Shown piece after piece: positions 26,839-46,575 of a DNA stretch of 64,000 bases. This stretch comes from Rhabdochlamydiaceae bacterium (GTDB taxonomy: Bacteria; Chlamydiota; Chlamydiia; Chlamydiales; Rhabdochlamydiaceae). The DNA lies in NCBI GenBank assembly GCA_035478995.1, contig DATIJE010000004.1:6218-70217 (forward strand), read 5' to 3'. Below the pieces are notes generated by a model. The model saw nothing but the letters and a program-made list of their open reading frames with translations. It was not told the origin of the DNA and made no database searches. The position numbers and the translations under genes are program-made. Each line of letters begins with the position of its first letter. Position 1 is the stretch's first letter.

Positions 26839-27679
26839 AACTCCTCCTCGACTTTTGACCACTCAAAAATGGTTTGCGAGCATCATTACAAGGCCGATCG
26901 ATATAGACAACCAAATGGTCTCAGTCTCTCCTTCTGGAAGACCAATGTCCGAGGAGGCTCCTGAATTCATCGCTCCAGGCATCAAATTAGCTTCAGACAA
27001 ACGGATTCAAATCTACAATCAGCAATATTGGTGGCGCCTATTTTCCAATCTCCATAAGATTTTTCCCACCCTTACTTGTCTGTTCGGATATAGCGGCTTT
27101 AATCATTTGATCGCAATCCCCTATCTGACCAAATACCCTCCTCGCCATTGGTCGCTCGGTCTACTGGGAAACAAGCTCCTGCAATGGATCGACGAGGACT
27201 ATCATGAGGATGATAAGCTTCTTCTATCTTTGACGGCAGAGCTCGACTTGGCATACCATCAAATCTTCTTTTCTCCTGCTCCTGTCAGATTGCCTTTTTC
27301 CCCAGACCTTCTCACAAAGAAAGTATCCCTGCAGCCTCATTTATATCTGTTCGAGCTTCCATTCGACTTGTTTTCATACAGGACAGCTTTTTTAAAGGAG
27401 AGCGTTCCTTTCTGGCTGGACAATGAATTTCCTCCCCTTCCACAAGAAAGGACCTATTTTTTTGTTCTCTATAGAAGTCAGAGCAATCGGATTGTCTACC
27501 AGGAACTGCAGGAGGGGCACTGGACCCTTCTAACGTTCATAGCCGATGGGATGACCATTGAAGAAGCTTGCGACGCGTTAGAAAAGCAGGGAGGAAAGGC
27601 CTACGAAGAAGCAGCCGAATCCCTTCCAGACTGGATTCAACAATGGGTCCTCGAAGGATGGATCATCCCCCATACGTAA
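26822..27679 (+). CDS. DUF2063-like partner protein (BufC-like)
   Basis: The call rests on position directly after DUF692 with a 17-nt overlap, the size, and the N-terminal TQKWFASIITRP motif. Confidence 0.55.
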   Translation: MQSEPKTPPRLLTTQKWFASIITRPIDIDNQMVSVSPSGRPMSEEAPEFIAPGIKLASDKRIQIYNQQYWWRLFSNLHKIFPTLTCLFGYSGFNHLIAIPYLTKYPPRHWSLGLLGNKLLQWIDEDYHEDDKLLLSLTAELDLAYHQIFFSPAPVRLPFSPDLLTKKVSLQPHLYLFELPFDLFSYRTAFLKESVPFWLDNEFPPLPQERTYFFVLYRSQSNRIVYQELQEGHWTLLTFIADGMTIEEACDALEKQGGKAYEEAAESLPDWIQQWVLEGWIIPHT

Positions 27680-28700
27680 AGACAAGCCTGGGATTAATAT
27701 ACAGCTTGCCATGTCCTCGAACAATCATGGAAGCATGGAAAGGGACGTGCTCGCATACGGAAGGATATTGGTATACGAAAGAACTCATTCTCCAAACGAC
27801 CGCATCAGGAGCTTCATTCAGGATGATTCCTACATTCGGATCTTCTATTCTTGGAAGATTGGATACAGGAGAGGGAATATAAACTGTCCTATGGAGTTTT
27901 TTCAAACTCTCTTGATACATTAAAATTTGATGGTGATGAAAACCTTGTTCCTGCATTTGTTTCATCCACGTCTCTAAGTCATTTGTGACAATTGCAGAAT
28001 ATCTGCAGCCTTCTATCGATGATTTTTTATAAATGCCGCATCCTCCAAAAGCAGAATATACTGGATACCAATCATCCGACTGCGAAAGAGAGAATTGTTT
28101 TTTCATATACCACCAATCGTTGCCCAAAAACTCAGAGCCCAAAGGGTATACAGCGTCTCTGAACGCATACCAATCCCAATAAGTATTCCTTGGATCTATG
28201 CCATAGGCAAAAACAGCATCCCATTCTCTCCCTGATTGAAACACTTCCACGATTCCTCGGAGCGCAGGAGGAATTTTAAAATCCATGTCCATCCAAATGA
28301 TATAGGGAAAATCTTGGAATTCCTCCGACATCGCTCTATCTAAGACAATATTCCTAGCCCTGGCAATTTCTTCCGGTCGATAAAAGTGCCCGTCATTCTT
28401 TACATTAATAATGGATTTAGCGAGATCTCCCCGATTGATGTCCTCGCTTTGAACCAGTACGCGAGAATTCCTTTGACGCCATCTTCGCAATTGGTTTTTT
28501 GTTCCATCGATAGAATTATTCTCATAAACAACGATTCGATAGTCTTGGAACAAAGCCCCGATTTTCTCCATGATTGCTATCGTGTGAGGAAGGCGGCTTT
28601 CCACATCTCTGCAGATACCGCAAATGACCACTTTTTCAGAGATAGCAGAAGCATAGGAGCAGGAGCAAACAACACAAAATACAACAAAAAGAAATCGCAT
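27663..28700 (-). CDS. GT-A fold glycosyltransferase (CAP59/CMT1-like?), signal peptide
   Basis: VVICGICRDVESRLPHTIAIMEKIGALFQDYRIVVYENNSIDGTKNQL resembles the N-terminal block of the CAP59-type mannosyltransferase family. It has the DXD-like motif WMDMDF. N-terminus is MRFLFVVFCVVCSCSYASA. Confidence 0.4.
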   Translation of the reverse strand: MRFLFVVFCVVCSCSYASAISEKVVICGICRDVESRLPHTIAIMEKIGALFQDYRIVVYENNSIDGTKNQLRRWRQRNSRVLVQSEDINRGDLAKSIINVKNDGHFYRPEEIARARNIVLDRAMSEEFQDFPYIIWMDMDFKIPPALRGIVEVFQSGREWDAVFAYGIDPRNTYWDWYAFRDAVYPLGSEFLGNDWWYMKKQFSLSQSDDWYPVYSAFGGCGIYKKSSIEGCRYSAIVTNDLETWMKQMQEQGFHHHQILMYQESLKKLHRTVYIPSPVSNLPRIEDPNVGIILNEAPDAVVWRMSSFVYQYPSVCEHVPFHASMIVRGHGKLYINPRLVFTYGG

Positions 28701-28710
28701 ATTTTAATTC

Positions 28711-29784
28711 CTATCCTGAAGTTTTGTAGGGATAAGCCATGGAATGGATCTTTTCTAACCAGTATTGATTCGTCAATTTTTCACGATAAAGGGGGTTTGT
28801 AAAGGCGTCACCATATTCTTTCACCCATTTTTCTAGATTGCTTTGAGTGATTTCAGACCAGTCCTGGACAATCACAACGGGAAGTCCCTCAAACATGGGA
28901 TCCAGGGTAGAACTTTTTACAATCGCAATGCATCCAAGAACCAAATCTTCCCAAACTCGATGTGTATCCAAGCCATTCCCAAAAGGACAAATCGAAAAGG
29001 CGTAATGCCCTTTTGTTTCCCACAGGGTAGACCGTTTCATGAATCCAGAATAGTCAATAAGCCCAGTAGGAAGAAGGCGCTGGAATATCGTAGTGCGGTC
29101 TTCTCCAAACTGAAGATATCGCTTGTGACCTGCTCTCATCGTATCTGATAGCTGAAAATCCACAAAAGCGCGTAATTTTCGATCATAGGTAGGCGGAAAT
29201 TTCTTTAGGAGATTTTTTAAGACTTCCTCCTGCTGTTTAGGAGAGCCCCTTTCCCCCCATCCTCCAGACACCCCTTTATAAGCTATCGTATGAAAGTCCA
29301 TTCCAATAGGAATATGGCTGACTTTTGAACTATTCCCACAATAATCGTTGTTTTGAGCAAAGACATGAATGATCTTGTCATTTCGCAAAAACTCTTCGAT
29401 GTTAAAATCATTGCCGCAATCCGAGGGAAAGGATTCATCCCCGTCGTTGATGACCAATACAAAAGGATGTTCTACATAAGGGAGAACGTGTTTATTAAAC
29501 GCATCGATGAATCGGCACTGAATCCAGATGATGTCGCCTCGTTTGATCGCCTTATACTTATTTTCATCCAAAGCATTATCTGGAGCAAAGTGTGCAAAAA
29601 ATGCCCGTGGATTTTTTTCCGGACCAATATCGCAAGATGCCGCCATGCCAAGGTTCCAAACATATTCAGTCATTTCCCAAGCATCTACTTTTCCTTCCCT
29701 ATCCCGCCTTCCTTCCCTGGCTATGAGAAGATTCGAAAAGATCAGCAAAAAACAAATTAAAGATTTTTTAAGTACCGATTTCAT
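28711..29784 (-). CDS. Exostosin (GT47)-like glycosyltransferase, signal peptide, paralog of 43213..44100
   Basis: FSICPFGNGLDTHRVWEDLVLGCIAIV resembles the exostosin C-terminal motif F.L.P.G....R..EA...G.IPV. N-terminus is MKSVLKKSLICFLLIFSNLLIA. Confidence 0.45.
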   Translation of the reverse strand: MKSVLKKSLICFLLIFSNLLIAREGRRDREGKVDAWEMTEYVWNLGMAASCDIGPEKNPRAFFAHFAPDNALDENKYKAIKRGDIIWIQCRFIDAFNKHVLPYVEHPFVLVINDGDESFPSDCGNDFNIEEFLRNDKIIHVFAQNNDYCGNSSKVSHIPIGMDFHTIAYKGVSGGWGERGSPKQQEEVLKNLLKKFPPTYDRKLRAFVDFQLSDTMRAGHKRYLQFGEDRTTIFQRLLPTGLIDYSGFMKRSTLWETKGHYAFSICPFGNGLDTHRVWEDLVLGCIAIVKSSTLDPMFEGLPVVIVQDWSEITQSNLEKWVKEYGDAFTNPLYREKLTNQYWLEKIHSMAYPYKTSG

Positions 29785-29922
29785 AGAGACCCTGTTTTAT
29801 CAGATTCAGGAGACTAATGATTGCGATTTTTTTTTACACTTGTTTTTTTGTCGGAGGCGTTATTTGACTTGAAAAATTCAATCCTATTTGAATAGATTGG
29901 CTGAAAAAATGGGGTTCCTAAA

Positions 29923-31062
29923 ATGAAATCAAAAACAATTGTGCCTTGGCTTACATTTCTTATCATAGGCTTGTTCGCAAACCTATCTGCAGACATTGCA
30001 ATCGCACCCAAAAAAGCTCTTATTTTTGGAATTACCGGCCAAGATGGCGCCTATCTTGCAGAACTACTATTGGACAAAAATTATGAAGTGCATGGAGTCA
30101 AAAGGCGTTCTTCTACTAGAAATACAGAACGTTTGGAGCAGATATGTGAAAAGGCAGAAAAAGAAAATAAGCGCTTTTTTCTTCATTATGGAGACCTTTG
30201 CGACAATATAAACATCAGCAATTTGATCCAAACGATCAAACCTGATGAAGTGTATAACCTGGCAGCGCAAAGTCATGTGAAGGTCTCTTTTGAAATGCCT
30301 TTATATACCGTCGATGTCGATGGGATGGGCGCTTTGCGCATATTGGAAGCGATCAGACAGATCGGCCATGAAAAACAAATGAAGTATTATCAAGCATCAA
30401 GCAGTGAAATGTTCGGGAAAGTGCAAGAGACCCCTCAAACAGAAATGACCAACTTTCATCCCAGATCTCCTTATGGTGTCGCGAAAGTGCTGGCCTACTG
30501 GATCACTGTAAATTATAGAGAAGCTTATGGGGTCTTTGCTTGCAATGGAATCCTTTTCAATCATGAATCCCCTTTAAGAGAGGAAACGTTCGTCACTCGA
30601 AAAATCGCTCTCGCTGCATGCCGATACAAATGTGGTTATAACCAAGTGTTACAGCTAGGCAACCTCGACGCCAAAAGAGACTGGGGTTATGCCAAAGATT
30701 ACGTTGAAGCCATATGGCTGATGCTCCAACAAGATAAGCCTGAGGATTATGTAATCGCAACAGGGGAAACTCATTCCGTGCGAGAATTCGTAGAGTTGGC
30801 CTATAAAGAATTAGGCATCGATATTGAATGGAAAGGCGAAGGGATCAATGAACAGGGAATCGATAAAAAAACAGGACGGACCATAGTGAAAGTCAATCCG
30901 GAGTTTTACCGGCCTGCAGAAGTGGACTTTCTCTTAGGAAATGCTGAAAAAGCAAGGCAAAATCTTAAATGGGAACCAAAAACACATTTTAGAGACTTAT
31001 TGAAAATCATGATCGAATCTGACCTTAAAAAAACTGAAGACGAATCTAGAAGGGAAATATGA
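29923..31062 (+). CDS. gmd: GDP-mannose 4,6-dehydratase with a 29-aa hydrophobic N-terminal extension
   Basis: [58 protein letters not shown] and NHESPLR. The extension is [23 protein letters not shown]. An in-frame TTG inside the hydrophobic stretch could be an alternative start. Confidence 0.9.
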
Positions 31063-31913
31063 AAAAACTGATTGCTTATATCCTTTTTTTATTTTTGTGT
31101 TTTCGAGCTGACGCGAAAATCTACAACTTTACAAATGACCCGGTTGACGTGGTCATTCCTTGCACAGACAAAGACTTGGACACCTTAAACTTATGTATAG
31201 AAGGCATCCGCAACAACTGCAGCCAAGTCAGACGGATTATCGTCATCTCAGATCGTCCCCTGACCGATAAAGCTGAATGGTTCGATGAGAAGCAATTTCC
31301 TTTCGACAAAACAAGTGTAGCCTATTATTTACTAGGCTGCAATGAACAGAAAGCCAATGAATATCTTTCTGCTCCTAAACCCAGAGTTGGCTGGTATATT
31401 CAGCAATTGTATAAGTTATACGCCAGTTATGTCATACCTGGCATTTCAACGAATGTCCTCCACCTCGATTCTGATACCATCTTTTTAAATCCTGTTAGTT
31501 TTGTCGATCCGTCCGGCGGAGGACTGTACAACCCCGGTACCGAATACCATATCCCCTACTTTGATCATATTAATAAGGTGCTCCCGGGCCTTACGAGAAC
31601 ATACCGAGAATACTCAGGTATATCTCACCACATGCTTCTGCAAAAAGACGCCTTGGATGAGCTATTCCAATTAGTAGAATCCCACCATAATCTGGATCTT
31701 TGGAAAGTTTACTGTTTGTGCGTGGATCAAAAAGATCTTTTCCTTTCAGGGGCCGCGAGCGATGAGTTGTATTTCAATTTTGTGTTTCCCAGAACAAATC
31801 AAGTGAAACTGAGATTTTTAAAATGGGAGAACATCTCATCTTTGAGAAATATTTTTAGATACCAAAGGGCGGGATATCATTACGTTTCATGCCATTCATA
31901 CTCAAGAAGCTGA
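31059..31913 (+). CDS. Nucleotide-diphospho-sugar transferase-like protein (GT-A-like, DXD), signal peptide, paralog of 42324..43238
   Basis: [34 protein letters not shown] and [10 protein letters not shown] are about 50% identical by eye to 42324..43238. N-terminus is [19 protein letters not shown]. Confidence 0.45.
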
Positions 31914-31929
31914 AAAATAATGAGGAACA

Positions 31930-32643
31930 ATGACAATTCTTAGTAAAGCAAGAAAATTTTTTATTTTTTTTACTATTTATTTAGCTTCTTATAGATGCTT
32001 TTTGTTTTCGGTAGAATTTGATGATTTAACCTATGATTTTCTTTTATCAAACCCATATACCGATCATGTGCAGCATTTCCAGAAGCTCTTTCAGCAAACA
32101 AAAATTACATCATTTCTTGAATTTGGAATCGGCTATGGAACTAAATATTTTTTGGATCATTGTCAGAAAGTAACTTCCTGCGAAATTATTTTCCAAAATC
32201 AAACATCTTTATGGTTTTACCACTCGGTAGATCTATTTCAGAGATGCTCCAATTGGAAACCTATTTTAATGCATGGCGGTACAGCCTTGCAAAACGCGAA
32301 CGAGTTTTGTATTCATAACCACAAAGATCCAGCCCTTTACGAACCAGCTTATTTGCTCGATCTTAAAAGTATTTGCAACGAGTTATTTAAAGATAACCAA
32401 TTTGATGTCGCCTTCGTCGATCCCGGTTTTCACATGAGAGGCGATCTTGTAAATGAACTTTTTGATCGAGTACCGATTATCGTGGCTCATGATACAAATT
32501 ACGTTCCTGAACTTTACGGATGGAATAAAATTCAGATGCCTTCTAACTACAAAAAGGTTGTCTTTACAGAAGGCCAAGGAATTACATTCTGGATACAAAA
32601 CAACAGACCAGAATTAATTGCGGAACTTAGCAAAAGAAATTAA
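31930..32643 (+). CDS. Rossmann-fold methyltransferase-like protein with hydrophobic N-terminus
   Basis: FLEFGIGYGTKYF ... VAFVDPGFHMRGD ... IIVAHDTNY. Confidence 0.35.
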   Translation: MTILSKARKFFIFFTIYLASYRCFLFSVEFDDLTYDFLLSNPYTDHVQHFQKLFQQTKITSFLEFGIGYGTKYFLDHCQKVTSCEIIFQNQTSLWFYHSVDLFQRCSNWKPILMHGGTALQNANEFCIHNHKDPALYEPAYLLDLKSICNELFKDNQFDVAFVDPGFHMRGDLVNELFDRVPIIVAHDTNYVPELYGWNKIQMPSNYKKVVFTEGQGITFWIQNNRPELIAELSKRN

Positions 32644-32671: not shown

Positions 32672-33673
32672 TCATAAAGAATAAAAGAAGGGAAGTCTTT
32701 TTTTGTTATTTATATGCAAGTTGTTAATGCGCATTTGTTTTCCGTTGTATGATATGAACGGGACCCGCCTCCCTTCTAAATCGATCTTCCAATCAATGGT
32801 AAAATGAGAAGGATTATAGATACAGAAAGCAGAAATTACCCCTGGCTCTGAGGCTGCATGCCAGTAAGGATCCCACCCGCCCAAATAAATTCCAAAAGCT
32901 GCTGCATCAAAAACGGAAGCAAAATCATCAATATAGTTAGAATAGAATAAAAATTCATTCGACTTTTGCGAAAGTTCTAGCTTGTGGTCCTCAATGTATT
33001 CAGATGTAAGTACCGGCAAATAATCAATAAAGACCTTAAGATAATTATTTTTGAATTGAGCAATCGTTAACATATCATTCATTTCAGAGTTAACGTAATC
33101 AGGAAATGAATTTATCAAATGACCTAGAGGCACGGAATTTGCGATATAAAGAAAGCCTGCAACACACCGTGAATCTGTTTCAAAAGTTGCCCCTATCATG
33201 CCATTATAGTGCTTTCTGAAAACCGGAAGCAGTTCAGATAAATCAACATATAGCATGACGTCATTTTCTAAATGAAATACATCTGAAAGGTTGTACATTC
33301 TGACAAAATCATCGAGGTAAAAAAAACGTTCCGTTGTATATACCCAATACAGTTTGGTATAGTCAGTTCCAATAATTTCATGAGAAACGCTATTCTGAAA
33401 TTTCAAATGTCTTTCCGATAGGATCAAAGATTCACATGAAATAGGAATGACAGAATAACTATTCAATATAGAGGATCCTTTCATGATCGCCTGCTCATTT
33501 GCTATTAAGTAAATTGAGCATTCCTTATTAAACAGTCGTGCTTGAGCAATTGAAAATTCCAAATGATGTGGAAAAGATGGACCGATATGAACAAAAGTAA
33601 TCGAGAATGCGTTCAAAGAAGCTTGAAAGCTCGCAAAAAAAAGTAAAATAAAATATAAAAAATAAAATTTCAT
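32672..33673 (-). CDS. Putative glycosyltransferase (uncharacterised family), signal peptide, paralog of 40239..41234
   Basis: ITFVHIGPSFPHHLEFSIAQARLFN and FHLENDVMLY are collinear with 40239..41234 (IVFIHIGNKLPQYAEIALRQARSFN, FHMEYDNMLY). Confidence 0.35.
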   Translation of the reverse strand: MKFYFLYFILLFFASFQASLNAFSITFVHIGPSFPHHLEFSIAQARLFNKECSIYLIANEQAIMKGSSILNSYSVIPISCESLILSERHLKFQNSVSHEIIGTDYTKLYWVYTTERFFYLDDFVRMYNLSDVFHLENDVMLYVDLSELLPVFRKHYNGMIGATFETDSRCVAGFLYIANSVPLGHLINSFPDYVNSEMNDMLTIAQFKNNYLKVFIDYLPVLTSEYIEDHKLELSQKSNEFLFYSNYIDDFASVFDAAAFGIYLGGWDPYWHAASEPGVISAFCIYNPSHFTIDWKIDLEGRRVPFISYNGKQMRINNLHINNKKRLPFFYSL

Positions 33674-38646: not shown

Positions 38647-39233
38647 CATCGATACGTACTATATGGACTTTATCTTTAATTCTGATTCCTTTGATAGCAT
38701 CGGCAAATATCGGACCACAAGGGTTCTATGCACATCCGAACAAGTATTTTGTAGAAACTGGATCATTCGGTGGAGAAGGGATTCAAAAAGCCTTAGATGC
38801 CGGTTTTTCCGAAGTTCATTCTCTTGATATAGAACCTGCTTTCATCAGAGATTGTAAAAGAAGATTTAAAAACCGTAATAATGTGCATCTTTGGTTGAGA
38901 GACTCGGGGTTTCAACTTTGGGAAGTAATCGAACCCATCAATGAACCCATTACTTTTTGGTTAGATGGGCATAGAGGAACACCAGATCCTCGTGGAGGGA
39001 AAAACACTCCCCTAATGGAAGAGTTAGAACAAATAAAGAAACATCCAATTAAAACACACACGATCATGATCGACGATTTGCATTGCTGCAATACAATTCT
39101 TTTTGATTTTCTCAGTCGAGAAGACATAGTTAACAAGGTTTTAGAAATAAATCCAAATTATACAATTACTTTCGAACCGGGTGGCAATGAAGGAGAATAC
39201 CCTATAAATGTTCTTGTAGCTTTTGTTCAATAG
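38643..39233 (+). CDS. Methyltransferase-like protein, signal peptide
   Basis: YFVETGSFGGEGIQKAL..GFSEVHSLDIEP ... WLDGH ... IMIDDLH. Confidence 0.4.
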   Translation: MTSIRTIWTLSLILIPLIASANIGPQGFYAHPNKYFVETGSFGGEGIQKALDAGFSEVHSLDIEPAFIRDCKRRFKNRNNVHLWLRDSGFQLWEVIEPINEPITFWLDGHRGTPDPRGGKNTPLMEELEQIKKHPIKTHTIMIDDLHCCNTILFDFLSREDIVNKVLEINPNYTITFEPGGNEGEYPINVLVAFVQ

Positions 39234-39244: not shown

Positions 39245-40234
39245 ATGCGATTTTCGATAATCAAAAAAGTCAGTCTACAAATTTTCTTAGGAATATCTAT
39301 TTTCGGCATGACTTTCTTGCATAGCCGCAACCAGGGAGGTGTCACTTATACATTTAGTGGAGGAAGATTTGGTGATAATCTTCTTGCTTACTTACATGCG
39401 AAGTGGATTTCTTATCAGGAAAAAATTCCTCTTTTATATAAGCCGTTTGGGTATTCATCTTATTTAGTTTTGGATGAAAAAGAAATGACTTACGAATCAT
39501 CGAGACATTTTTTTACTCATACAATCGAATATTCTCAGTCTCTAAGGCTAGGCATTGAACGAATAAAAACAAGAAACTTTCTTTATTCAGTGCCTTACTT
39601 TCCGGAAGATAAAGAAGAACAGCTAACTTATAGCTTTTTTCATTTCGATGTGGACTGGAAGAATACGGAATTTAGAACTATTGTGAAGGAATTACTCGCT
39701 CCAAAGCGGCCATTGGCAACAATTGAAGTGCCACAAAATTGCATCAGTATTGCATTGCACGTTCGCGAGGGAGGAGGATTCGATACGGACCATACTCGAT
39801 ATTATGCACCAAAAAAACTTCCTCCTTTGCATTTCTACATTGATGGACTGTTAAAGATGTTGGAATATTTTAAAGGAAAGTCCATCTATTGCCATGTTTT
39901 TACTGATGCCGTTAATCCCGAATCCATTATTGAAAACATTAGAGCTGGAATTAAAAATAATCATTCCATTGTTTTTGCATACCGGAAAGAAAATAATCAT
40001 CATGATTCTAATATTCTTGAAGATTTCTTTTCCTTTTTCAAATTTGATGCAATGATCCGCCCTCAATCTAATTTCAGCATCATTCCCTCTTTGCTTAAGG
40101 ATTACGCTATTTTAATCCACCCAAAAACAGCGATCATCAAATACGGATCTCCATTTATCGATCAGTTAGAAATTGTCATTCAAGATGAGCTTTATCAGAA
40201 ATTGATGAATGATTGCTCTTCTAATTTCAACTAA
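39245..40234 (+). CDS. Fucosyltransferase-superfamily-like protein, paralog of 37195..38157
   Basis: FSGGRFGDNLLAYLHAKWIS, IALHVREGGGFD and IRPQSNFSIIPSLL. Confidence 0.45.
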   Translation: MRFSIIKKVSLQIFLGISIFGMTFLHSRNQGGVTYTFSGGRFGDNLLAYLHAKWISYQEKIPLLYKPFGYSSYLVLDEKEMTYESSRHFFTHTIEYSQSLRLGIERIKTRNFLYSVPYFPEDKEEQLTYSFFHFDVDWKNTEFRTIVKELLAPKRPLATIEVPQNCISIALHVREGGGFDTDHTRYYAPKKLPPLHFYIDGLLKMLEYFKGKSIYCHVFTDAVNPESIIENIRAGIKNNHSIVFAYRKENNHHDSNILEDFFSFFKFDAMIRPQSNFSIIPSLLKDYAILIHPKTAIIKYGSPFIDQLEIVIQDELYQKLMNDCSSNFN

Positions 40235-40238
40235 GCCT

Positions 40239-41234
40239 CTAAGACGCAAATTCATGCAATTGTTTAGAATGAATGTGTAAATTATTGATCCTGTACTTGA
40301 TTCCATTATACACAGCGTAAGGAACTTTCCTTCCTTGGCTATCTCGTATCCATTCATAAGAAAGCAGAGAGGGATTAAACACACAGCTTTCATTGATAAA
40401 ACCAGGTGTTGAATTACCATTGCTAGGATCGATCCCTCCTAGGTATTGCCCGATGGCCGCTGCGTCGAAAATCGAATGGAATAAATGAATATTCTGACAA
40501 TATTTAGCTTTGTTTTGAGCCTTGTGTCCCGTGGGACTGATGAGAGCATGCTGCTGCACATATTCTTCATGAACGATGGGCAAGTGATCGATGGCATTGT
40601 AACCATTCTCTTTTTTAAACAAGGCTATCAATTCCATATCGTTCAATTTCTTCGAAGCATGGTTAGCGAAAGAGTTGGCAAGTCGTTTCATCCTTTGCGG
40701 ATTGGGAATGAAGATGAATCCGGCAATGCATCTCTTGTCATTGTCGAATGTTGCCGCAATACCTTTATATTGAGTCTGAAAAATGGGGAGCAGCTCCTCC
40801 AGATTTGCGTAAAGCATATTGTCGTACTCCATATGAAATACATTTTTTAGTCCATATTGAGTCATTAAATCATTTAGATACAAAAATCGTTCACTTGTAC
40901 ACCGCCAAAAACCTTCTCTCCAATGATTGTCCAGGGTGCTTCTTTGAATAAAACGAGCATGTTCAGTCGTCCTTGCAAGAGATTCATAATCGATCGTAGT
41001 GATATTCGCATTTAATGCATCATGTGACAAAGAGCGTATCGCTGATTTGCTGGAAAGCAAAATAATTGGACATTCTGGATTAAAAGATCTTGCTTGCCGC
41101 AAAGCGATTTCTGCATATTGAGGCAGCTTATTCCCAATATGAATGAAGACGATGTTATAGTCTGCTGCATTTAGAAAAACTTGCAAGAAACCTGTAATGA
41201 TAAAAGCAAAAAAAATAGCGCATTTTTTATACAT
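40239..41234 (-). CDS. Putative glycosyltransferase (uncharacterised family), signal peptide, paralog of 32672..33673
   Basis: It is collinear with 32672..33673. N-terminus is MYKKCAIFFAFIITGFLQVFLNA. Confidence 0.35.
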   Translation of the reverse strand: MYKKCAIFFAFIITGFLQVFLNAADYNIVFIHIGNKLPQYAEIALRQARSFNPECPIILLSSKSAIRSLSHDALNANITTIDYESLARTTEHARFIQRSTLDNHWREGFWRCTSERFLYLNDLMTQYGLKNVFHMEYDNMLYANLEELLPIFQTQYKGIAATFDNDKRCIAGFIFIPNPQRMKRLANSFANHASKKLNDMELIALFKKENGYNAIDHLPIVHEEYVQQHALISPTGHKAQNKAKYCQNIHLFHSIFDAAAIGQYLGGIDPSNGNSTPGFINESCVFNPSLLSYEWIRDSQGRKVPYAVYNGIKYRINNLHIHSKQLHEFAS

Positions 41235-41329: not shown

Positions 41330-42241
41330 GTGCACTCATTCTTTTTCACTTTAGTGTTTATATCTTTATCTTTGAGCATATATGGCACCGTGATTGCTCG
41401 CTTTCGCGGACAATTCGGCAACCAACTTTTCCAAGCAGCTGCAGCCATTGCTCTAGCTAAGGAAAATCGATGCGACGTTTATTTTCCCGATTTCGATAAT
41501 TTAAACGCACCTCACTTACAGGAAATGAATTTAGAAAAAAATTATCGAATTTTATTTCATCGAATACACAATACAGTTTTCAGACCTTATCCGAGTGTCG
41601 TCTATAGAGAGCCGGATTTTAATTATCATCCAATTCCTTATTATCGCAATATTGAAATTGTGGGTTTTTTTCTATCGGAAAAATTCTTCAAGAAATACAA
41701 GGACGTGATCTTAGAATTATATTCTGCTCCAAGAGAAGTCGAGGATCATCTGCAGATGCATTTTGCTTCACTCCTCGACCATCCCAAGACAGTCGGAGTC
41801 CATGTGCGCACAGGCTATCCAGACTATAAAAAATCGGGTTTTAGCCCTCAATTTTATCAGGTCTACCTTCCACCCGATGCAGAGTATTTCAAAAAGGCAA
41901 TCCATATGTTCGAATCCGACTGTTTATTTGTCGTATTCTCAGATCATATTGGATGGTGTAAGGAACAATTTAAAGGGATCGATCGAAACCTGATTTTCAT
42001 TGAAGGACAGGATTACATTCATGATTTTTATTTATTGACAAAATGTAAACATGCCATCATTGCAAATTCCAGTTTTTCATGGTGGGCTGCTTATCTTAAC
42101 AGAAATCCAGATAAAAAAATTATCTGTCGACGGCCTTTTATTGCACCCTATGATCCCTTGAGTCATCCTAAGGATATCATTTGTGAAGATTGGTATCCCA
42201 TTGACATGCATCAAGTACCTGGTATGCCAATTTTCCCATAA
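41330..42241 (+). CDS. Glycosyltransferase family 11 (alpha-1,2-fucosyltransferase)
   Basis: RGQFGNQLFQAAAAIALA, VGVHVRTGYPDY and IANSSFSWWAAYLN are the GT11 motifs. GTG start with hydrophobic leader MHSFFFTLVFISLSLSIYG. An internal GTG (giving MIARFRGQFGNQ) is a possible alternative start. Confidence 0.8.
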   Translation: MHSFFFTLVFISLSLSIYGTVIARFRGQFGNQLFQAAAAIALAKENRCDVYFPDFDNLNAPHLQEMNLEKNYRILFHRIHNTVFRPYPSVVYREPDFNYHPIPYYRNIEIVGFFLSEKFFKKYKDVILELYSAPREVEDHLQMHFASLLDHPKTVGVHVRTGYPDYKKSGFSPQFYQVYLPPDAEYFKKAIHMFESDCLFVVFSDHIGWCKEQFKGIDRNLIFIEGQDYIHDFYLLTKCKHAIIANSSFSWWAAYLNRNPDKKIICRRPFIAPYDPLSHPKDIICEDWYPIDMHQVPGMPIFP

Positions 42242-42323: not shown

Positions 42324-43238
42324 ATGAAGCGATTATTGATCATTTTATGCTTTATAGTTCAAATGACGGCGTATGCTTTTGACAAAGTTCAATATACATT
42401 CGACCCTGCACCTATCGATGTAATCATTCCTTGTACTGATAAGGATATTCCTACCTTAGATCTTTGCATCGATGGAATTCGCAAGAACGGAAGAGGAATC
42501 CGCCGTGTGATTGTGGTCTCTGCAAAACGACTCACGGAAAAAGCAGAATGGTTTAATGAAAGAAATTATCCTTTTACTCCTTTTGATCTCGCTTTAGAAA
42601 TCTTTAGAAATCATGCCAATGCCGCATCCAGCGCTCATGCATATGTATCGTCCAAAAAAACCCGGGTTGGATGGATCTATCAACAGTTTTTAAAATTCTA
42701 TGCGCCTTTTGTAATCCCTGATCTTTCATCAAACATTCTCATTTTGGATGCAGATACCATTTTTCTCAATCCTGTTTCATTTTTAGGAGATCAAGGACAG
42801 GGCCTCTATAATCCCGGCACCGAACATCATTTCCCTTACTTTGAACTGATGGGCCGTTTAATTCCCGGACTGAAAAAAGTATTTCCGAAATTATCCGGAA
42901 TTTCCCATCACATGCTGTTTCAAAAAACTGTGCTAAAAGATCTGTTATATACAATTGAATCTATCCATCAAATTGATGCCTGGAAAGCAATCTGTCGATG
43001 CATCGATCACCGCTTTCTTTATGAAGCTGCTTTATCAGAATATGAAATCTACTTTAACTTTGTATTTACTCGTAGCGATCAAATGAAAGTCAGATATCTT
43101 AAATGGACAAATATTCAAAAAATTGAAGACATTCGCAAATACAAGAAACGAGGGTACCACTATGTTTCTTGTCATTCTTATGCACGTAAACCTACATCAA
43201 CAGGAAAGGCTCATGAGACACTTAAAAAAACTGATTAA
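42324..43238 (+). CDS. Nucleotide-diphospho-sugar transferase-like protein, signal peptide, paralog of 31059..31913
   Basis: IDVIIPCTDKDIPTLDLCIDGIRKN, LDADTIFLNP and [11 protein letters not shown]-terminus is MKRLLIILCFIVQMTAYA. Confidence 0.45.
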   Translation: MKRLLIILCFIVQMTAYAFDKVQYTFDPAPIDVIIPCTDKDIPTLDLCIDGIRKNGRGIRRVIVVSAKRLTEKAEWFNERNYPFTPFDLALEIFRNHANAASSAHAYVSSKKTRVGWIYQQFLKFYAPFVIPDLSSNILILDADTIFLNPVSFLGDQGQGLYNPGTEHHFPYFELMGRLIPGLKKVFPKLSGISHHMLFQKTVLKDLLYTIESIHQIDAWKAICRCIDHRFLYEAALSEYEIYFNFVFTRSDQMKVRYLKWTNIQKIEDIRKYKKRGYHYVSCHSYARKPTSTGKAHETLKKTD

Positions 43239-44100
43239 TTTATTTTGTTTAACCACGATAGCTGTTGTGGCCTCGAGTGCTCTTGCCCAAAACCGCGGTT
43301 CAAGTGCACCTTATATTTCTGGAGATACGTTTCGTTCTTATGCGGATTTTATCTTCGATGAAACAAATATTCCTTTTTTTCCCGAGAGAGTTAGACCGGG
43401 TAATACCATTTTCGTAAAAACAGATTATCTTAAATATTTTTTCCGAAGAATGCGCCCCCTCATTAATTGCCCTTACATCCTGATCACGCATAATAGCGAT
43501 TTGCCTGCTCCAGGAAACTACACGCAGCTTTTAGAGGATAAAAACTTGATCGCCTGGTTTGGACAAAATGTCGAACACTACTCTCATCCAAAACTCCACC
43601 CTATACCTATTGGAATTGCAAACAAATATTGGGGCCATGGGAATACCGACCTCTTAGATATTGCTAGAAGCCACGCAAATCAATTGTATCGCAGCAACTT
43701 GCTATTTTTGAATTTTTCGGTCGGAACCCATCCTGAACGGACTAATGTATATCACCAATTCATCAATCAACCTTTTTGCCTTTATAAAACGAATCAAAAT
43801 TATCGAGAGTATTTGGACAGTACGGCTTCGTGCAAATTTGTTTTAAGTCCTAGAGGCAATGGGATTGATTGTCATAGAACCTGGGAAGCTTTATATCTCG
43901 GCGCCATTCCTGTTGTTAAAACCTCCTTTCTCGATCCATTATATGAAAATCTTCCTGTCGTCATTGTAAAAGATTGGGCAGAAGTAACAGAAGAATTTCT
44001 CAATAAAAAATACGCTGAGATGCAAAATCTGACTTATCAGACAGAAAAAATATACGCAGACTATTGGTTCAAATTAATCGACAGCTATAAAAACCAGTAG
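43213..44100 (+). CDS. Exostosin (GT47)-like glycosyltransferase, signal peptide, paralog of 28711..29784
   Basis: FVLSPRGNGIDCHRTWEALYLGAIPVV. I chose the ATG at 43213 (MRHLKKLINLFCLTTIAVVASSALA), which is preceded by AGGAAAGG. The track ORF starts at 43123, inside the upstream gene. Confidence 0.45.
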   Translation: MRHLKKLINLFCLTTIAVVASSALAQNRGSSAPYISGDTFRSYADFIFDETNIPFFPERVRPGNTIFVKTDYLKYFFRRMRPLINCPYILITHNSDLPAPGNYTQLLEDKNLIAWFGQNVEHYSHPKLHPIPIGIANKYWGHGNTDLLDIARSHANQLYRSNLLFLNFSVGTHPERTNVYHQFINQPFCLYKTNQNYREYLDSTASCKFVLSPRGNGIDCHRTWEALYLGAIPVVKTSFLDPLYENLPVVIVKDWAEVTEEFLNKKYAEMQNLTYQTEKIYADYWFKLIDSYKNQ

Positions 44101-44114
44101 CTTTTGTCTCAAAT

Positions 44115-44150
44115 GCATCAGGCTAGTTTAAAACTAGCCTGATGCCTTTT
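44115..44150 (+). terminator. Rho-independent terminator
   Basis: 15-bp perfect palindrome GCATCAGGCTAGTTT a AAACTAGCCTGATGC, followed by CTTTTT. Confidence 0.6.
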
Positions 44151-45197
44151 TCATAGTCCCAATCGTTCACTAAAGTAAACAATCGTGGGCTTAAGGCCTT
44201 CATCAAGGGAGACTTTCGGACCCCATTTTAAAACTTGATTGGCTAGAGTCAAATCAGGACGTCTTTGTTTAGGATCGTCTAGGGGTAAAGGCTTGAACAC
44301 GACCTGAGAGTTTGAGTTGGTGAGGCTGATGACTTTTGAAGCGAGTTCCAACATGGTGAATTCTCCGGGATTGCCTATGTTTACAGGTCCCGTAAATTCT
44401 TCTGTCGTATTCATCAGGGCACGGATCGCATCAATGAGATCGCTCACATAACAGAAGGAGCGTGTCTGCTCTCCGTTTCCATACATGGTAATAGGATCAT
44501 TTTTTAAAGCCTGGACGATAAAATTCGAGACGACGCGCCCATCATCCGGGCTCATACGAGGACCGTAGGTATTGAATATCCGTCCCACCTTAATTTTTGT
44601 ACCATAAGCGCGATGGTAATCGAAAAATAATGTCTCTGCGCTTCGTTTTCCTTCATCATAACAAGAACGGATTCCGATTGGATTGACATTCCCCCAATAC
44701 GATTCCTTTTGAGGATGCATTGTAGGGTCTCCATAGACTTCACTTGTAGAGGCTTGAAAGACTTTCGCGTTCCATTTTTTTGCGAGTTCCAATACAAAAA
44801 GCGCGCCGAAAAAATTCGTTTTTATCGTCTGGATAGGATCTTTCTGGTAATGCGGCGGGGAAGCAGCGCAGGCGAGGTTGTAAATTTCATCCAAGGGCTT
44901 ATCGAGATCGAGCGGCTTTGTAATATCATGCTGAATAAAAGTAAAAAGAGGATTTGTTAATAAATGTTCGATATTTGCTCGACTTCCGGTGGACAAATCA
45001 TCTAAACAGATGACTTCGTAACCTTCCTCAAGAAGATGGTCGCATAGGTTAGATCCGAGAAAGCCCGCCCCACCCGTCACCAGGCTGCATTTTTGCCCTT
45101 CTATGGCCTGTAAGAAATTTAACTGCATGAACAAGCATGCTAAAACCAAAATGATATTACTCCATTTTTTCCACATGCGAACGTCCGACGTTTTCAT
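44151..45197 (-). CDS. uxs: UDP-glucuronate decarboxylase (UDP-xylose synthase)
   Basis: [56 protein letters not shown] and [10 protein letters not shown]. The start is ambiguous. ATG 45197 gives an N-terminal TM ([12 protein letters not shown]) and overlaps the ugd stop. ATG 45128 ([11 protein letters not shown]) gives a soluble protein with no overlap. Confidence 0.85.
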
Positions 45198-46575
45198 ATT
45201 TAAATCCAAGGTTTTTTAAGGTTTCGGTTGAGATCAAATTACGTCCATCTACAAAAAGAGGTCTTTTCATGGAATCACGAAGTTTCACCAGATCGATATT
45301 TTCGAATTCTTTCCATCCTGTGAGAAGCATGATCGCATCGCTCTCTTCTGCAGCATCGTAAGAAGAATCGCAATATTCGATTTGGGGATAGATTTTTTTA
45401 ACATGTTGCATCGCTATAGGATCGTATGCTTTTACATAAGCGCCATTTTTTAACAATTCTTCTATGATCTTAAGAGAAGGTGAACAGCGCACATCGTCTG
45501 TATTTTCCTTAAATGACAATCCCAATATTGCAATCGTCTTATTTTCAACCTCGGAATCTAACAATTTGTATAGTTTTTGTAGAATGATCTGCGGTTGTAA
45601 TTTATTTGCTTCAATAGCCGCTTGAACGATCTTCAAATCTACACCTAACTTCTGAGCATCATGTACCAATGCAATTGTGTCTTTTGGCAGGCAATACCCT
45701 CCGTATCCTGGACCGGGATTTAAACACTTTGATCCAATGCGACTATCGAGGGCAAGTCCACTTTTAACTTCAAACACATCGGCTCCGACCTGATCGCATA
45801 AATTGGCAATTTCATTGATGAATGCAATTTTTACGGCTAGAAAGGAATTCGCCGCATATTTGATCATTTCTGCAGATTCAATGCTAGTGAAAAGAAAGGG
45901 AACCTTTTTGGAATAAAGAGGCCAAAGAATTTCAACCAAAATTTGATTCGCTCTTTTAGATTCAGAACCAATCACCACACGTTCGGGATCACAAAAATCT
46001 TGTACCGAAGTGCCCTCGCGTAAAAATTCGGGGGTATAAGCTAGATCAAAATCAAACTGATCGTCGCAATTCTGCCGAATTAGATCCGCAAATTTTTTCA
46101 CCGAACCAATAGGAACGGTACTCTTAACAAAAATGACTTTTTGACCATTGATATTTTTTCCGATTGTTTTAGCGACGGCATGAAATGCGCCTAAATTGGC
46201 TTCTCCATTTTCATTTGAAGGCGTTCCAACGGCGATAAAAATAATCTCATTTTTTCTAATGGATTGTTTGACATCGCTGCTAAAAAGCAATCGATTCTCC
46301 TGCACATTTTTATCGACGAGTTCTTTCAGACCGATCTCAAAAATGGGAATATGGCCCTGATTGAGAAGATCGATCTTATCTTGATCGATATCGCAACAAA
46401 TCACATGGTTTCCGAATTCTGCAAGACAGGCTCCTAAAGTGAGCCCGACATAACCTGTGCCAATGACTGTGATCCCATGAGTTTTTCGATCGAGGAAACT
46501 CTCGTCGTGTTCTATCGAGAAAAGTTCGCCAGCTTGTAATAAAAGAATCAAAAAAAGTATTGATATTGATTTCAT
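45157..46575 (-). CDS. ugd: UDP-glucose 6-dehydrogenase with hydrophobic N-terminal leader
   Basis: [38 protein letters not shown] and VDGRN. I chose the ATG at 46575 ([20 protein letters not shown]). The longer track ORF (to 46731) overlaps phoH2. There is no ATG, GTG or TTG start between the leader and the Rossmann fold. Confidence 0.85.

Follow-up and report, generated by a model that had tools for sequence, protein, structure and literature searches.

Chlamydiae import ATP, NAD+ and SAM from the host over the inner membrane, and these molecules must therefore transit the chlamydial periplasm. We know of no extracytoplasmic assembly of sugars in free-living bacteria by enzymes of the kind described below. 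In Chlamydia trachomatis, host UDP-glucose is taken into the inclusion, where it is used by a secreted Leloir enzyme (PMC4829429). The initial annotation of our locus cited this as a precedent, which stands as regards the use of host UDP-glucose in the inclusion; the route differs, since the glycogen enzymes of C. trachomatis are delivered by type 3 secretion (PMC4829429), whereas the proteins described here carry Sec-type leaders. In chloroviruses, the GT114 enzyme A075L takes part in building the core N-glycan carried by the capsid protein of the virus itself (PMC11571054).

The window (the whole analyzed stretch of 64,000 nucleotides) comes from a Rhabdochlamydiaceae MAG. Positions 27663-46575 (approx. 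19 kb) are filled by 20 back-to-back ORFs, in agreement with the run of about 19 consecutive glycosylation genes initially annotated, and 19 of the 20 open with a hydrophobic, short-cored leader of the Sec signal-peptide type, as had been noted for nearly every gene. The ORFs of the island are as follows:

27663-28700, minus strand: CAP59-like/GT2-type GT-A, leader MRFLFVVFCVVCSCSYASA (PF11735, 32.4 bits; PF00535)
28711-29784, minus strand: GT114-like (A075L-type) with a divergent N-terminal domain, leader MKSVLKKSLICFLLIFSNLLIA (PDB 8avq/8q8i, E 2.5e-12 over the C-terminal domain)
29923-31062, plus strand: GDP-mannose 4,6-dehydratase (GMD), leader of 23 aa (PF16363, E 1e-148 from residue 33)
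31059-31913, plus strand: DUF6492-like GT-A, paralogue a, with a DSD motif and a leader (PF20102, weak: 20.1 bits, below the 22.9 cut-off)
31930-32643, plus strand: 237-aa protein with a hydrophobic N-terminus (no Pfam or NCBIfam match below E 0.01)
32672-33673, minus strand: GT8-like GT-A with a leader, no Pfam model (40% identical to its paralogue 40239-41234; included in alignment A2)
33704-34633, minus strand: FkbM-type methyltransferase, leader MKLVLFFIASCIGIMDFSFA (PF05050)
34672-35406, minus strand: 244-aa protein with a leader (no Pfam or PDB match; leaderless counterpart in viral cassette L108)
35429-36148, minus strand: FkbM-type methyltransferase with a weaker leader (h-core of 7 residues; PF05050, E 1.5e-18)
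36200-37030, minus strand: FkbM/RfbT-type methyltransferase with a leader, start at the ATG of codon 7 (PF05050, E 8e-22; 276 aa in public gene calls)
37195-38157, plus strand: GT11-related putative fucosyltransferase-superfamily glycosyltransferase, paralogue 1, with a leader (hhalign versus GT11: 78%, E 1.7e-5)
38227-38646, plus strand: 139-aa ORF with an internal TM segment (residues 23-37), the sole island ORF without an N-terminal leader
38643-39233, plus strand: 196-aa protein, leader MTSIRTIWTLSLILIPLIASA (no Pfam or PDB match)
39245-40234, plus strand: GT11-related glycosyltransferase, paralogue 2, with a leader (44% identical to 37195-38157; included in alignment A1)
40239-41234, minus strand: GT8-like GT-A, no Pfam model, leader MYKKCAIFFAFIITGFLQVFLNA (AF2 and Foldseek)
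41330-42241, plus strand: GT11 (alpha-1,2-fucosyltransferase family) with a hydrophobic N-terminus and a GTG start (PF01531, E 1.4e-27)
42324-43238, plus strand: DUF6492-like GT-A, paralogue b, leader MKRLLIILCFIVQMTAYA (PF20102, 25.3 bits)
43213-44100, plus strand: GT114 (A075L-like beta-xylosyltransferase), ATG of codon 31 as start, leader MRHLKKLINLFCLTTIAVVASSALA (PDB 8q8i/8avq, E 6e-31)
44151-45197, minus strand: UDP-xylose synthase-like short-chain dehydrogenase (UXS), hydrophobic leader of 17-20 residues (PF01370 and PF16363)
45157-46575, minus strand: UDP-glucose 6-dehydrogenase (UGD) with a leader (all three UGD domains)

The identities of the enzymes were read from Pfam, PDB or fold evidence. 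The island combines GT-A and GT-B Leloir glycosyltransferases (GT11, two GT11-related, two GT114-like, CAP59-like, two DUF6492-like and two GT8-like proteins) with three FkbM methyltransferases, GMD, UGD and UXS. The domain matches recovered the gmd, ugd and uxs genes of the initial annotation (the last as a UXS-like epimerase), together with its CAP59-like transferase and GT11. Its two "exostosin-like" proteins belong instead to CAZy GT114, and the alignment of 43213-44100 keeps all of Ser72, Asp73, Arg158, Asn202, Gly203, Arg208 and Glu211 of A075L (residues as given in PMC11571054). The two DXD GT-A proteins were narrowed to DUF6492-like enzymes (48% identical to each other) with weak Pfam support, and the two "GT11/23-like" proteins show a distant kinship with GT11. 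A pair assigned to an unknown family still has no Pfam model, but it no longer merits that label: the AF2 model of 40239-41234 (pLDDT 95.5) consists of a helix at residues 2-23 followed by a strand at 27-31 and the rest of a GT-A fold, its nearest Foldseek neighbors are the GT8 enzyme glycogenin and Legionella SetA and Lgt1 (E ~2e-8), and, as modelled, the pair is a new family with this fold. The AF2 model of 37195-38157 reached a pLDDT of 37, too low to be of use. Six or seven methyltransferases had been expected; the three FkbM proteins account for part of these. Searches of Pfam, NCBIfam and PDB brought no significant match for 31930-32643, initially annotated as a methyltransferase, or for 34672-35406 and 38643-39233, and these three proteins stay unassigned.

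The anatomy of the leaders was examined with classical signal-peptide rules coded by hand. The n-region charge is +1 to +3 in 18 of the 19 island leaders (0 in GT11), the h-core mostly comprises 11-16 residues, a small-x-small site is present in 17, and neither a twin-arginine (Tat) motif nor a lipobox was seen on reading all 19. The GT11-related protein 37195-38157 is without a small-x-small site. A wider survey covered 241 orthologous leaders of three families. Their median h-core is 12-13 residues (19 is reached in one leader), 184 have a net positive n-region, 204 (85%) have a small-x-small cleavage-type site after the core, and the median total length is 20-27 residues; in two of the three families, the charge of the 15 residues past the core is neutral to negative. 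The gap between leader and first catalytic-domain strand is only 2-8 residues, with no stem. Judged by these features, the leaders are of cleavable Sec signal anatomy (N-in, domain out) and are neither N-out anchors, of the sort that would keep the enzymes in the cytoplasm, nor Golgi-type anchors plus stem.

Leaders recur in the islands of approx. 17 Chlamydiota and Babeliales MAGs, and across hundreds of orthologues their sequence differs while the hydrophobic shape stays and the frame is kept. The CAP59-like family gave 474 matches (the best 120 of these are 50-79% identical), with leaders in at least 100 of 121 proteins; for the GT8-like family of 40239-41234 (998 matches) a leader was scored in 107 of the best 120. 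Leader-bearing homologues of 37195-38157 were found in 17 of 18 MAG loci, those of 38643-39233 in loci L020 (42% identical) and L026 (60% identical), and those of 42324-43238 in L008 and L011. Other chlamydial islands carry leaders also on GT2, GT4, LicD, NodZ-like, GT14, acetyltransferase and methyltransferase proteins.

Within the window, a signal-peptide-like score was obtained for 16 of 18 island ORFs versus 15 of 43 elsewhere (binomial 3.5e-6), a comparison based on one crude heuristic. The same window encodes leaderless cytoplasmic enzymes, namely a GT2 (10904-11800) and two class-I methyltransferases (5609-6667 and 20268-21221), which argues that the leaders are not a genome-wide artefact; Ogt, a pyridine-nucleotide oxidoreductase, PhoH and ComM are likewise leaderless.

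On contigs assigned to giant viruses by IMG/VR, the same enzyme families again occur in clusters. Their proteins start directly at the catalytic domain: a hydrophobic extension was present in 7 of 243 homologues from nine island families, including 2 of 46 DUF6492-like proteins, 2 of 54 relatives of 40239-41234 (192 viral relatives in all, nearly all leaderless) and none of 51 CAP59-like homologues. In one giant-virus cassette (L108), seven of the island families follow one another, and the GT114-like and CAP59-like genes adjoin in the same order as in the island. For six of its seven proteins the alignment begins at residues 1-11 of the viral protein and residues 20-36 of the island protein; for the FkbM-like protein it begins at residue 15 and island residue 58. 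The leaderless products of L108 2015-3001 and 357-1007 are 44% and 35% identical to 28711-29784 (from island residue 33) and 34672-35406 (from residue 36), respectively. By these alignments, the island closely matches giant-virus glycan clusters whose proteins lack the leader, and among the homologues examined leaders are confined to Chlamydiota and Babeliales. Since the nearest viral and bacterial non-chlamydial relatives have no N-terminal hydrophobic segment, the leaders appear to have been gained, not inherited. The likeness to signal-anchored eukaryotic Golgi enzymes, drawn in the initial annotation, holds for topology only; the nearest kin of the cassette are the leaderless viral clusters and not the Golgi enzymes of eukaryotes. 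Such leaderless viral counterparts of a leader-bearing chlamydial island are new here, and our literature search found no published description of an export-tagged glycan cassette of this type.

The reading that we favor, and consider probable, is that a glycan cassette of the type seen without leaders in giant viruses of protists was refitted for Sec export, and that its enzymes draw on the host's UDP-Glc, GDP-Man, NAD+ and SAM in the periplasm or the lumen of the inclusion. We infer the export, compartment, donor source, acceptor and glycan from the gene content and the leaders. The pathway would comprise (i) passage of the leader-bearing enzymes across the inner membrane via Sec, (ii) their release on the periplasmic side, where a few with longer cores would stay tethered and from which some may pass on into the inclusion lumen, (iii) conversion of UDP-glucose to UDP-xylose by UGD and UXS, and of GDP-mannose to GDP-4-keto-6-deoxymannose (precursor of fucose or rhamnose) by GMD, (iv) building of a fucose/xylose/mannose-type glycan on an acceptor by the island glycosyltransferases, and (v) O-methylation of this glycan by at least three FkbM enzymes, with the host supplying the starting donors and cofactors. 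The sole nucleotide-sugar enzymes in the window are converting ones, starting from UDP-Glc and GDP-Man, and its genes include no nucleotidyltransferase, initiating phosphoglycosyltransferase, flippase, polymerase, ABC exporter or GT-C enzyme. The UGD reaction uses up NAD+ stoichiometrically, and bound NAD(P)+ is required by both GMD and UXS. None of the three has a Tat motif, and once through Sec each would depend on folding and cofactor loading in an extracytoplasmic setting, which counts against export. On balance, the glycan-building outside the bacterial cytoplasm proposed initially is supported to the extent that sequence can show it: orthologous islands bear leaders, the translation starts do not lie downstream of them, and the leaders are not of the cytoplasm-retaining type.

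The leaders might instead be uncleaved signal anchors, with the enzymes forming a tethered assembly line on the periplasmic side of the inner membrane and not a soluble or secreted set, which we regard as unlikely; it is a variant of the export model, as the chemistry would still be extracytoplasmic. UXS, GT11, 40239-41234 and 39245-40234, with cores of 17-20 residues, could be such anchors, and the missing small-x-small site of 37195-38157 and the single continuous helix modelled for the leader of 40239-41234 point the same way. However, the orthologous cores almost never reach 19 residues and are mostly followed by a cleavage-type site, and the leaders are too short for a membrane span plus linker.

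It is similarly improbable that the proteins are effectors, exported by Sec and then by type 2 secretion or vesicles, which glycosylate or methylate host molecules (of the inclusion membrane, cytosol or secretory pathway) without building a bacterial glycan. In structure, the closest neighbors of the GT8-like family are, besides glycogenin, toxin glycosyltransferases that target the host (Legionella SetA and Lgt1, YeGT, PaTox); in locus L007 the island is 2 kb away from a gene for a GspD secretin; and the host cytosol is rich in all donors and cofactors. Toxin-type glycosyltransferases usually act alone, however, whereas the island encodes a full glycan-building kit (sugar-nucleotide conversion, about ten transferases, methyltransferases); no secretion signal beyond Sec was found in its proteins, and the GT114 homologue A075L acts on the virus's own glycan (PMC11571054).

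Conventional glycan assembly in the cytoplasm, by enzymes anchored at the cytoplasmic face (N-out/C-in or monotopic), would remove the problem of cofactor and donor supply, and many bacterial glycosyltransferases do act at that face. A leaderless GDP-fucose synthase (Fcl) amid leader-bearing neighbors in locus L026, together with the leaderless GT2 of the window, suggests that some sugar-nucleotide chemistry may remain cytoplasmic in parallel, in which case an exporter would be needed. We nevertheless consider such anchoring of the island proteins very unlikely: the positive n-regions and the neutral-to-negative flank in two of three families predict, by the positive-inside rule, an N-in orientation with the domain outside, cores of 12-13 residues cannot span the membrane, no requirement for an anchor is known for soluble enzymes such as UGD, UXS and GMD, and the window lacks an initiating transferase, flippase and exporter.

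Several alternative start codons bear on whether the island proteins have leaders at all. Those initially noted for uxs and GT11 exist (ATG at codon 28 and GTG at codon 21, respectively), and 39245-40234 has an ATG at codon 22, where one public gene call begins. The UXS orthologues in L026, L027 and L028 all keep leaders, without an internal Met in the leaders of L026 and L027, and the GT11 orthologues in L007 and L026 are leader-bearing despite the alternative GTG here. A downstream gmd start had also been suggested, wrongly: no in-frame start lies between leader and Rossmann motif, the first (codon 50) being past the GxxGxxG motif. For UGD no alternative start codon was found, as initially stated; its 20 closest homologues all carry leaders, and 83 of 120 ordinary UGDs of other bacteria begin at the Rossmann motif. 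A point against the export model is that few relatives share the GMD leader (2 of 14 N-termini read, from 150 cluster representatives), most of those without it aligning from their own residues 2-7. That the leaders are artefacts, with true starts downstream, or functionless vestiges of eukaryotic type II anchors brought by gene transfer, is scarcely credible and already largely refuted, since neither GMD nor UGD offers a usable start past the leader, in-frame hydrophobic leaders persist in hundreds of diverged orthologues, and the leaderless state of the nearest non-chlamydial relatives marks them as gained.

The 20 ORFs of the glycosylation island (27663-46575) are close-packed and form seven blocks of alternating strand; the island is bordered by a DUF692/DUF2063 locus at one end and by a PhoH gene at the other. 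The G+C content over 32-44 kb is 34-39%, compared with 40-46% for most of the remaining window. Four of the island families occur twice, as diverged paralogues with 25-48% identity, and the GMD protein has an identical copy encoded on contig CAYLRP010000002.1 of assembly GCA_964386375.1.

A hydrophobic N-terminal segment (leader) was found in 19 of the 20 ORFs, the exception being a 139-aa ORF in which the segment is internal. The leaders, scored by hand-coded classical rules (not by SignalP), carry an n-region of net charge +1 to +3 in 18 of 19 cases (0 in GT11), and 17 of the 19 have a small-x-small site (small uncharged residues at -3/-1) shortly past the core. The hydrophobic core spans 11-16 residues in most of them and 17-20 residues in UXS, GT11, 40239-41234 and 39245-40234. 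Inspection of the 19 leaders by eye revealed neither Tat nor lipoprotein signals (no RR before the core, no [LVI][ASTVI][GAS]C lipobox).

Most starts fall on the earliest ATG of the ORF, and several are preceded by a purine-rich stretch. The initial annotation had allowed for alternative starts downstream of the leader in gmd, uxs and GT11, and for none in ugd. Inspection of in-frame start codons bore this out for UGD, and such starts do exist in UXS (ATG, codon 28) and GT11 (GTG, codon 21), which, with the ATG at codon 22 of 39245-40234, are the conceivable leaderless starts. The caveat was wrong for GMD, in which no in-frame start occurs from the leader to codon 50, a codon already past the Rossmann motif.

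The same window also encodes leaderless cytoplasmic enzymes, including a GT2 and two class-I methyltransferases, and the leaders are thus not shared by every gene. A crude any-start heuristic classed 16 of 18 island ORFs as signal-peptide-like, against 15 of 43 outside (binomial probability 3.5e-6), but its background in such secretion-rich regions is high (35-40%), and the argument therefore rests on family-level comparisons instead.

The best-supported reading is that the island enzymes are exported, as predicted, by the Sec pathway and would act on the outer side of the inner membrane. The catalytic domains start 2-8 residues past the leader, and in the AlphaFold2 model of the GT8-like protein a helix (residues 2-23) is followed by a strand (27-31), which leaves no room for a stem. 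A variant of this reading, in which the leaders are uncleaved anchors facing the periplasm, is plausible for four proteins; overall we consider it rather unlikely.

Pfam searches identified a CAP59-like (GT2-type) GT-A protein, GMD, three FkbM methyltransferases, GT11, UGD and a UXS-like dehydrogenase. The GT11 protein (41330-42241) matched PF01531 with 97.1 bits (cut-off 23.9), and UGD gave strong matches to PF03721, PF00984 and PF03720, i.e. the N-terminal NAD-binding, central and UDP-binding domains. Pfam support was weak for two DUF6492-like GT-A proteins, one of which fell under the curated cut-off. The UXS-like protein contains SDR/epimerase domains and was putatively assigned as UXS because its gene overlaps that of UGD and stays beside it in two other bacterial loci (L027 and L028). 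The six or seven methyltransferases counted in the initial annotation are reduced to the three FkbM proteins, since three small putative methyltransferases gave no match in Pfam (E values up to 5) or NCBIfam (E values up to 1).

The pair earlier described as exostosin-like does consist of transferases, but the family is GT114: 43213-44100 and 28711-29784 matched the solved structure of A075L from chlorovirus PBCV-1 with E values of 6e-31 and 2.5e-12, respectively, the second match covering the C-terminal domain only. A075L, a beta-1,4-xylosyltransferase with fucose as its acceptor, founded CAZy family GT114. Its catalytic base is Asp73, and Arg158, Arg208, Glu211, Asn202 and Gly203 bind the donor (PMC11571054). 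The alignment of 43213-44100 keeps all of Ser72-Asp73, Arg158, Asn202-Gly203, Arg208 and Glu211. For this protein we propose UDP-xylose as the putative donor and fucose as the putative acceptor, given the UGD-UXS pair next to it and the presence of GT11-type genes.

The two GT8-like proteins (32672-33673 and 40239-41234) have no Pfam model. An AlphaFold2 model built from a 68-sequence alignment (pLDDT 95.5) was found by Foldseek to be nearest to GT8 glycogenin and to toxin-type GT-A enzymes of Legionella (SetA/Lgt1), with a probability of 1.00 and E values of approx. 2e-8 but TM-scores of only 0.4-0.5, and H134-x-E136-x-D138, an acidic DXD-type motif of the GT-A Rossmann-like fold, is invariant in the alignment. 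Sequence searches gave no indication of GT8 membership, either in Pfam or, with paralogue 32672-33673, in the PDB. Another reading, in which the island products are secreted effectors modifying host targets, draws mainly on this fold likeness to toxin glycosyltransferases; we regard it as fairly improbable.

The GT11-related pair (37195-38157 and 39245-40234) resembles GT11 distantly, in the donor-binding half (hhalign probability 78%, E value 1.7e-5), and was not filed as GT11; an AlphaFold2 model computed from the two window paralogues alone reached a pLDDT of 37 and was discarded. PDB sequence searches were uninformative for the CAP59-like, DUF6492-like, GT8-like and GT11-related proteins, as well as for two small unassigned proteins. 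The large uncharacterized families GT8-like (approx. 1000 members), CAP59-like (approx. 470), GT11-related and DUF6492 offer themselves as targets for further work.

Comparison with bacterial orthologues revealed that the leaders are widely conserved. The CAP59-like protein gave 474 matches, the best 120 being 50-79% identical; 100 of 121 sequences were scored as leader-bearing, and a leader is visible in most of the other 21. The GT8-like protein gave 998 matches, with 107 of the best 120 scored as leader-bearing and a leader visible in most of the others. In the case of UGD, an extension precedes the GxGxxG motif in all of the 20 best matches and in 34 of the best 120 (median 35 residues, range 21-92, when the longest gene call is taken), whereas 83 of the best 120 start directly at the motif. 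All UXS orthologues from three other contigs carry leaders, and in two of them the internal Met is absent. A leader is rare among relatives of GMD. A comparison of conserved cysteines for signs of oxidative folding was uninformative: in UGD they occupy the same columns whether or not a leader is present, and in the CAP59-like proteins their number, five, is odd.

A scan of species-representative genomes identified 18 loci containing the GT11-related family, nearly all of them in Chlamydiota MAGs; those outside Chlamydiota include two Candidatus Babeliales MAGs and a single MAG labelled Pseudomonadota, whose locus resembles the Babeliales ones. In these loci and in those reached through UGD, the leader-bearing products comprise homologues of nearly every island family and, in addition, GT2, GT4, LicD, NodZ/FUT8-like, GT14, acetyltransferase and other methyltransferase proteins. 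The Babeliales loci also hold leader-bearing genes, and here a single leader precedes a fusion of GT8-like and DUF6492-like domains in the following genes of Babeliales-type loci:

L010, 4955-6529, GT8-like and DUF6492-like fusion
L013, 11000-12796, GT8-like and DUF6492-like fusion
L014, 11910-13769, GT8-like and DUF6492-like fusion

The leaders pooled from three families (241 in total) have a median length of 20-27 residues and an h-core with a median of 12-13 residues (interquartile range 11-14; at least 19 in one of the 241), with a net positive n-region in 184 and a cleavage-type site in 204. The shape of the leader is conserved and its sequence is not, which is the usual mark of a functional signal peptide. 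The charge distribution and the length of the core speak against the leaders being anchors that leave the catalytic domains facing the cytoplasm, which makes this arrangement very unlikely.

Several genes adjoining the orthologous islands were also recorded. In locus L026, on another contig, an Fcl-like GDP-fucose synthase (4783-5709, minus strand) is leaderless among leader-bearing GT2, GT14, GT11, FkbM, UGD, CAP59-like and UXS neighbours, and a DsbA-like thioredoxin with a signal peptide (1829-2455, minus strand), encoded close to the island, is a possible helper of oxidative folding. A class-B acid phosphatase with a signal peptide (L027, 3601-4275, minus strand) directly follows UGD-UXS and possibly removes nucleotide by-products. 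A collagen-repeat protein and a 2069-aa protein, which adjoin one chlamydial island (L006, 16341-21386), are possible glycan acceptors, and a GspD secretin gene lies 2 kb away from another island (L007, 1-1978).

Searches of the IMG/VR collection, in which viral status is as classed by the collection and many contigs belong to GVMAG giant-virus bins, revealed 192 relatives of the GT8-like and 91 of the CAP59-like protein, and none of the GT11-related family. The approx. 5 kb around these viral genes contain homologues of DUF6492-like, GT114, FkbM, GMD, UXS, UGD and GT11 proteins, and at 46 viral loci at least three island families occur inside approx. 5 kb. In the viral proteins, the N-terminus coincides with the first catalytic-domain strand: none of 51 CAP59-like homologues has a leader, and a hydrophobic extension was found in 7 of 243 homologues from nine families. 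Domain fusions in giant-virus loci (L071, L082 and L093) join GT114 with DUF6492-like, GT11-like with FkbM, and GT8-like with GT114.

Seven island families, all leaderless, were found in one row on a 225-kb IMG/VR contig (3300028804_000001, locus L108), where the GT114-like and CAP59-like genes are neighbours and their order matches that of the island. The identities to the island proteins are 23-44% (44% for two genes). Residues 1-11 of six of the seven products align to island residues 20-36, and residue 15 of the FkbM-like product aligns to island residue 58; from these offsets, most of the bacterial proteins correspond to the viral ones plus a leader. This contig, of which 7 kb were read, is much nearer to the chlamydial genes than the other viral contigs, which may reflect a recent transfer or a misclassified contig.

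Since the viral homologues are leaderless and most UGDs start at the motif, the sequence comparison shows that several unrelated families have acquired leaders within the chlamydial lineage, which argues for selection relocating an entire pathway. That the leaders are mis-called starts or vestigial anchors has next to no likelihood in view of their conservation in orthologues and the leaderless nearest relatives.

According to the current view, bacterial Leloir transferases are confined to the cytoplasm, and extracytoplasmic additions proceed via lipid-linked donors and GT-C enzymes (PMC11127046). Full-text searching of the literature found no description of leader-bearing chlamydial glycosylation enzymes. 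We tentatively propose, as a real but by no means assured possibility, that environmental chlamydiae and the leader-sharing Babeliales (Dependentiae) run a complete nucleotide-sugar glycosylation pathway, including sugar-nucleotide conversion and methylation, outside the cytoplasmic membrane, and that it is fed by the host with UDP-glucose, GDP-mannose, NAD+ and SAM. If true, bacteria would have a third way of assembling glycans, in addition to the cytoplasmic Leloir and the periplasmic GT-C/lipid-donor modes, made by adding Sec signals to a cassette that giant viruses share.

In the proposed mechanism, the enzymes would (i) cross the inner membrane via Sec and work in the periplasm or further out, in the inclusion lumen, (ii) use UDP-glucose and GDP-mannose supplied by the host, (iii) assemble an O-methylated glycan containing fucose/6-deoxyhexose, xylose and mannose, and (iv) possibly attach it to the surface of the infectious particle. 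The host would be the simplest source of donors because the island has converting enzymes only, whose starting compounds are UDP-glucose and GDP-mannose. Host nucleotides, NAD+ and SAM are taken up by chlamydiae over the inner membrane, and these compounds thus transit through the periplasm. C. trachomatis moves host UDP-glucose into its vacuole and uses it with a Leloir enzyme secreted by type 3 secretion (PMC4829429), which, with the import through the periplasm, makes a host supply plausible. The glycan is the likely product given the GT11, GT11-related, GT114, UGD-UXS, GMD, CAP59-like and FkbM enzymes, and it recalls the fucose-xylose core of the chlorovirus capsid protein, which is built with the help of A075L (PMC11571054). 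By analogy with the viruses, the infectious-particle surface may be the acceptor; a possible purpose would be to coat the particle, as giant viruses glycosylate their capsids or fibrils.

The weak points of the export model are that NAD(P)-dependent Rossmann enzymes must fold and load their cofactor after Sec transport, the rarity of the GMD leader, and the leaderless state of the L026 Fcl and the window GT2.

The nearest systems are the giant-virus glycosylation cassettes, which contain the same parts without leaders, and the lumenal glycogen pathway of C. trachomatis. Giant-virus glycosylation enzymes are generally held to act in the host cytoplasm. Their clusters (e.g. the capsid N-glycan machinery of PBCV-1, with A075L) share with the island GT8-like GT-A, DUF6492-like, GT114, FkbM, CAP59-like, GT11, GMD, UGD and UXS families, co-located in IMG/VR/GVMAG contigs, and in both cases sugar-nucleotide converters are paired with transferases and methyltransferases. 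Among the viral genes, fusion to multidomain proteins is frequent. Each bacterial copy has an additional leader of approx. 20-30 residues. C. trachomatis likewise has a Leloir-type enzyme at work beyond its own cytoplasm, with a nucleotide sugar taken from the host: its glycogen is made in the inclusion lumen from UDP-glucose brought by SLC35D2 (Gehre et al. 2016, PMC4829429). However, that pathway depends on type 3 secretion and not on Sec, and yields a single storage polymer rather than a methylated glycan of several sugars, with no exported sugar-nucleotide dehydrogenase, decarboxylase, dehydratase or methyltransferases. The island would extend this single precedent to an entire glycan pathway, and the link between chlamydial surface chemistry and giant-virus cassettes would be a concrete case of toolkits common to protist parasites. 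Export signals conserved throughout the lineage, whether the enzyme is a Leloir transferase, a SAM methyltransferase or an NAD-dependent sugar-nucleotide enzyme, suggest that for obligate intracellular bacteria the periplasm or vacuole serves as a compartment supplied with metabolites.

Periplasmic GT-C systems also add sugars outside the Gram-negative inner membrane, and their hallmarks are a polytopic GT-C enzyme, a polyprenyl-phosphate-linked donor and a flippase (Gtr, ArnT and the three-component pentofuranose system; PMC11127046). The island has instead soluble-type GT-A/GT-B enzymes only, from families using nucleotide sugars, and the Pfam-scanned ORFs of the window include no GT-C enzyme, polyprenyl-phosphate sugar synthase, flippase, nucleotidyltransferase, initiating phosphoglycosyltransferase, polymerase, ABC exporter or ligase. 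GMD, UGD, GT2/GT11-type transferases and FkbM methyltransferases are typical of O-antigen and capsule clusters too, but there the enzymes are cytoplasmic and leaderless and are accompanied by an initiating phosphoglycosyltransferase and Wzx/Wzy or ABC export genes, none of which occurs in the window.

Golgi type II glycosyltransferases and lumenal UXS resemble the island enzymes in the non-cytoplasmic location of the catalytic domain (predicted in the case of the island) and in families with eukaryotic members (CAP59/GT69-like, GT11, RXYLT1/GT47-like). UDP-xylose synthesis is lumenal in eukaryotes, a parallel to the island UXS, whereas UGD and GMD are cytosolic there. The Golgi enzymes have an uncleaved anchor of approx. 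18-22 residues and a stem, in contrast to the shorter cores, cleavage-type sites and stemless arrangement of the orthologue leaders. A eukaryotic Golgi origin of the leaders was rejected, as the nearest relatives are without any N-terminal hydrophobic segment.

Some further observations concern the remainder of the window. A second set of leader-bearing enzymes, some of normally cytoplasmic types, was found at 4873-13266, interspersed with leaderless Ogt, class-I methyltransferase and GT2 genes:

4873-5529, DUF1796 papain-like protein, leader-bearing
6919-7635, protein of unassigned family, leader-bearing
8922-9758, polysaccharide pyruvyl-transferase-like protein, leader-bearing
11821-12378, NUDIX hydrolase, leader-bearing
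12418-13266, peptidase A4, leader-bearing

The NUDIX hydrolase, if exported, could handle nucleotide by-products. Divergent MsrB (minus strand) and MsrA (plus strand) genes at 15969-17103, both encoding signal peptides, adjoin genes for a VTT/DedA membrane protein and for a pyridine-nucleotide-disulfide oxidoreductase that has no leader.

The region directly adjoining the island (25602-27679, plus strand) begins with a gene whose Cys-rich product of 140 aa has a signal peptide and contains SCAG/NSCAG motifs in repeats, and looks like an Hvf/bufferin-type modified-peptide locus. This gene is followed by:

26014-26838, plus strand, MbnB/DUF692 gene
26822-27679, plus strand, HvfC/DUF2063 gene

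On the other side of the island, a signal-peptide protein (53113-53739, minus strand) weakly matches type II chorismate mutase (PF01817, 23.4 bits, under the curated cut-off of 27), and the longest ORF of the window (58837-63180, plus strand) encodes 1447 aa.
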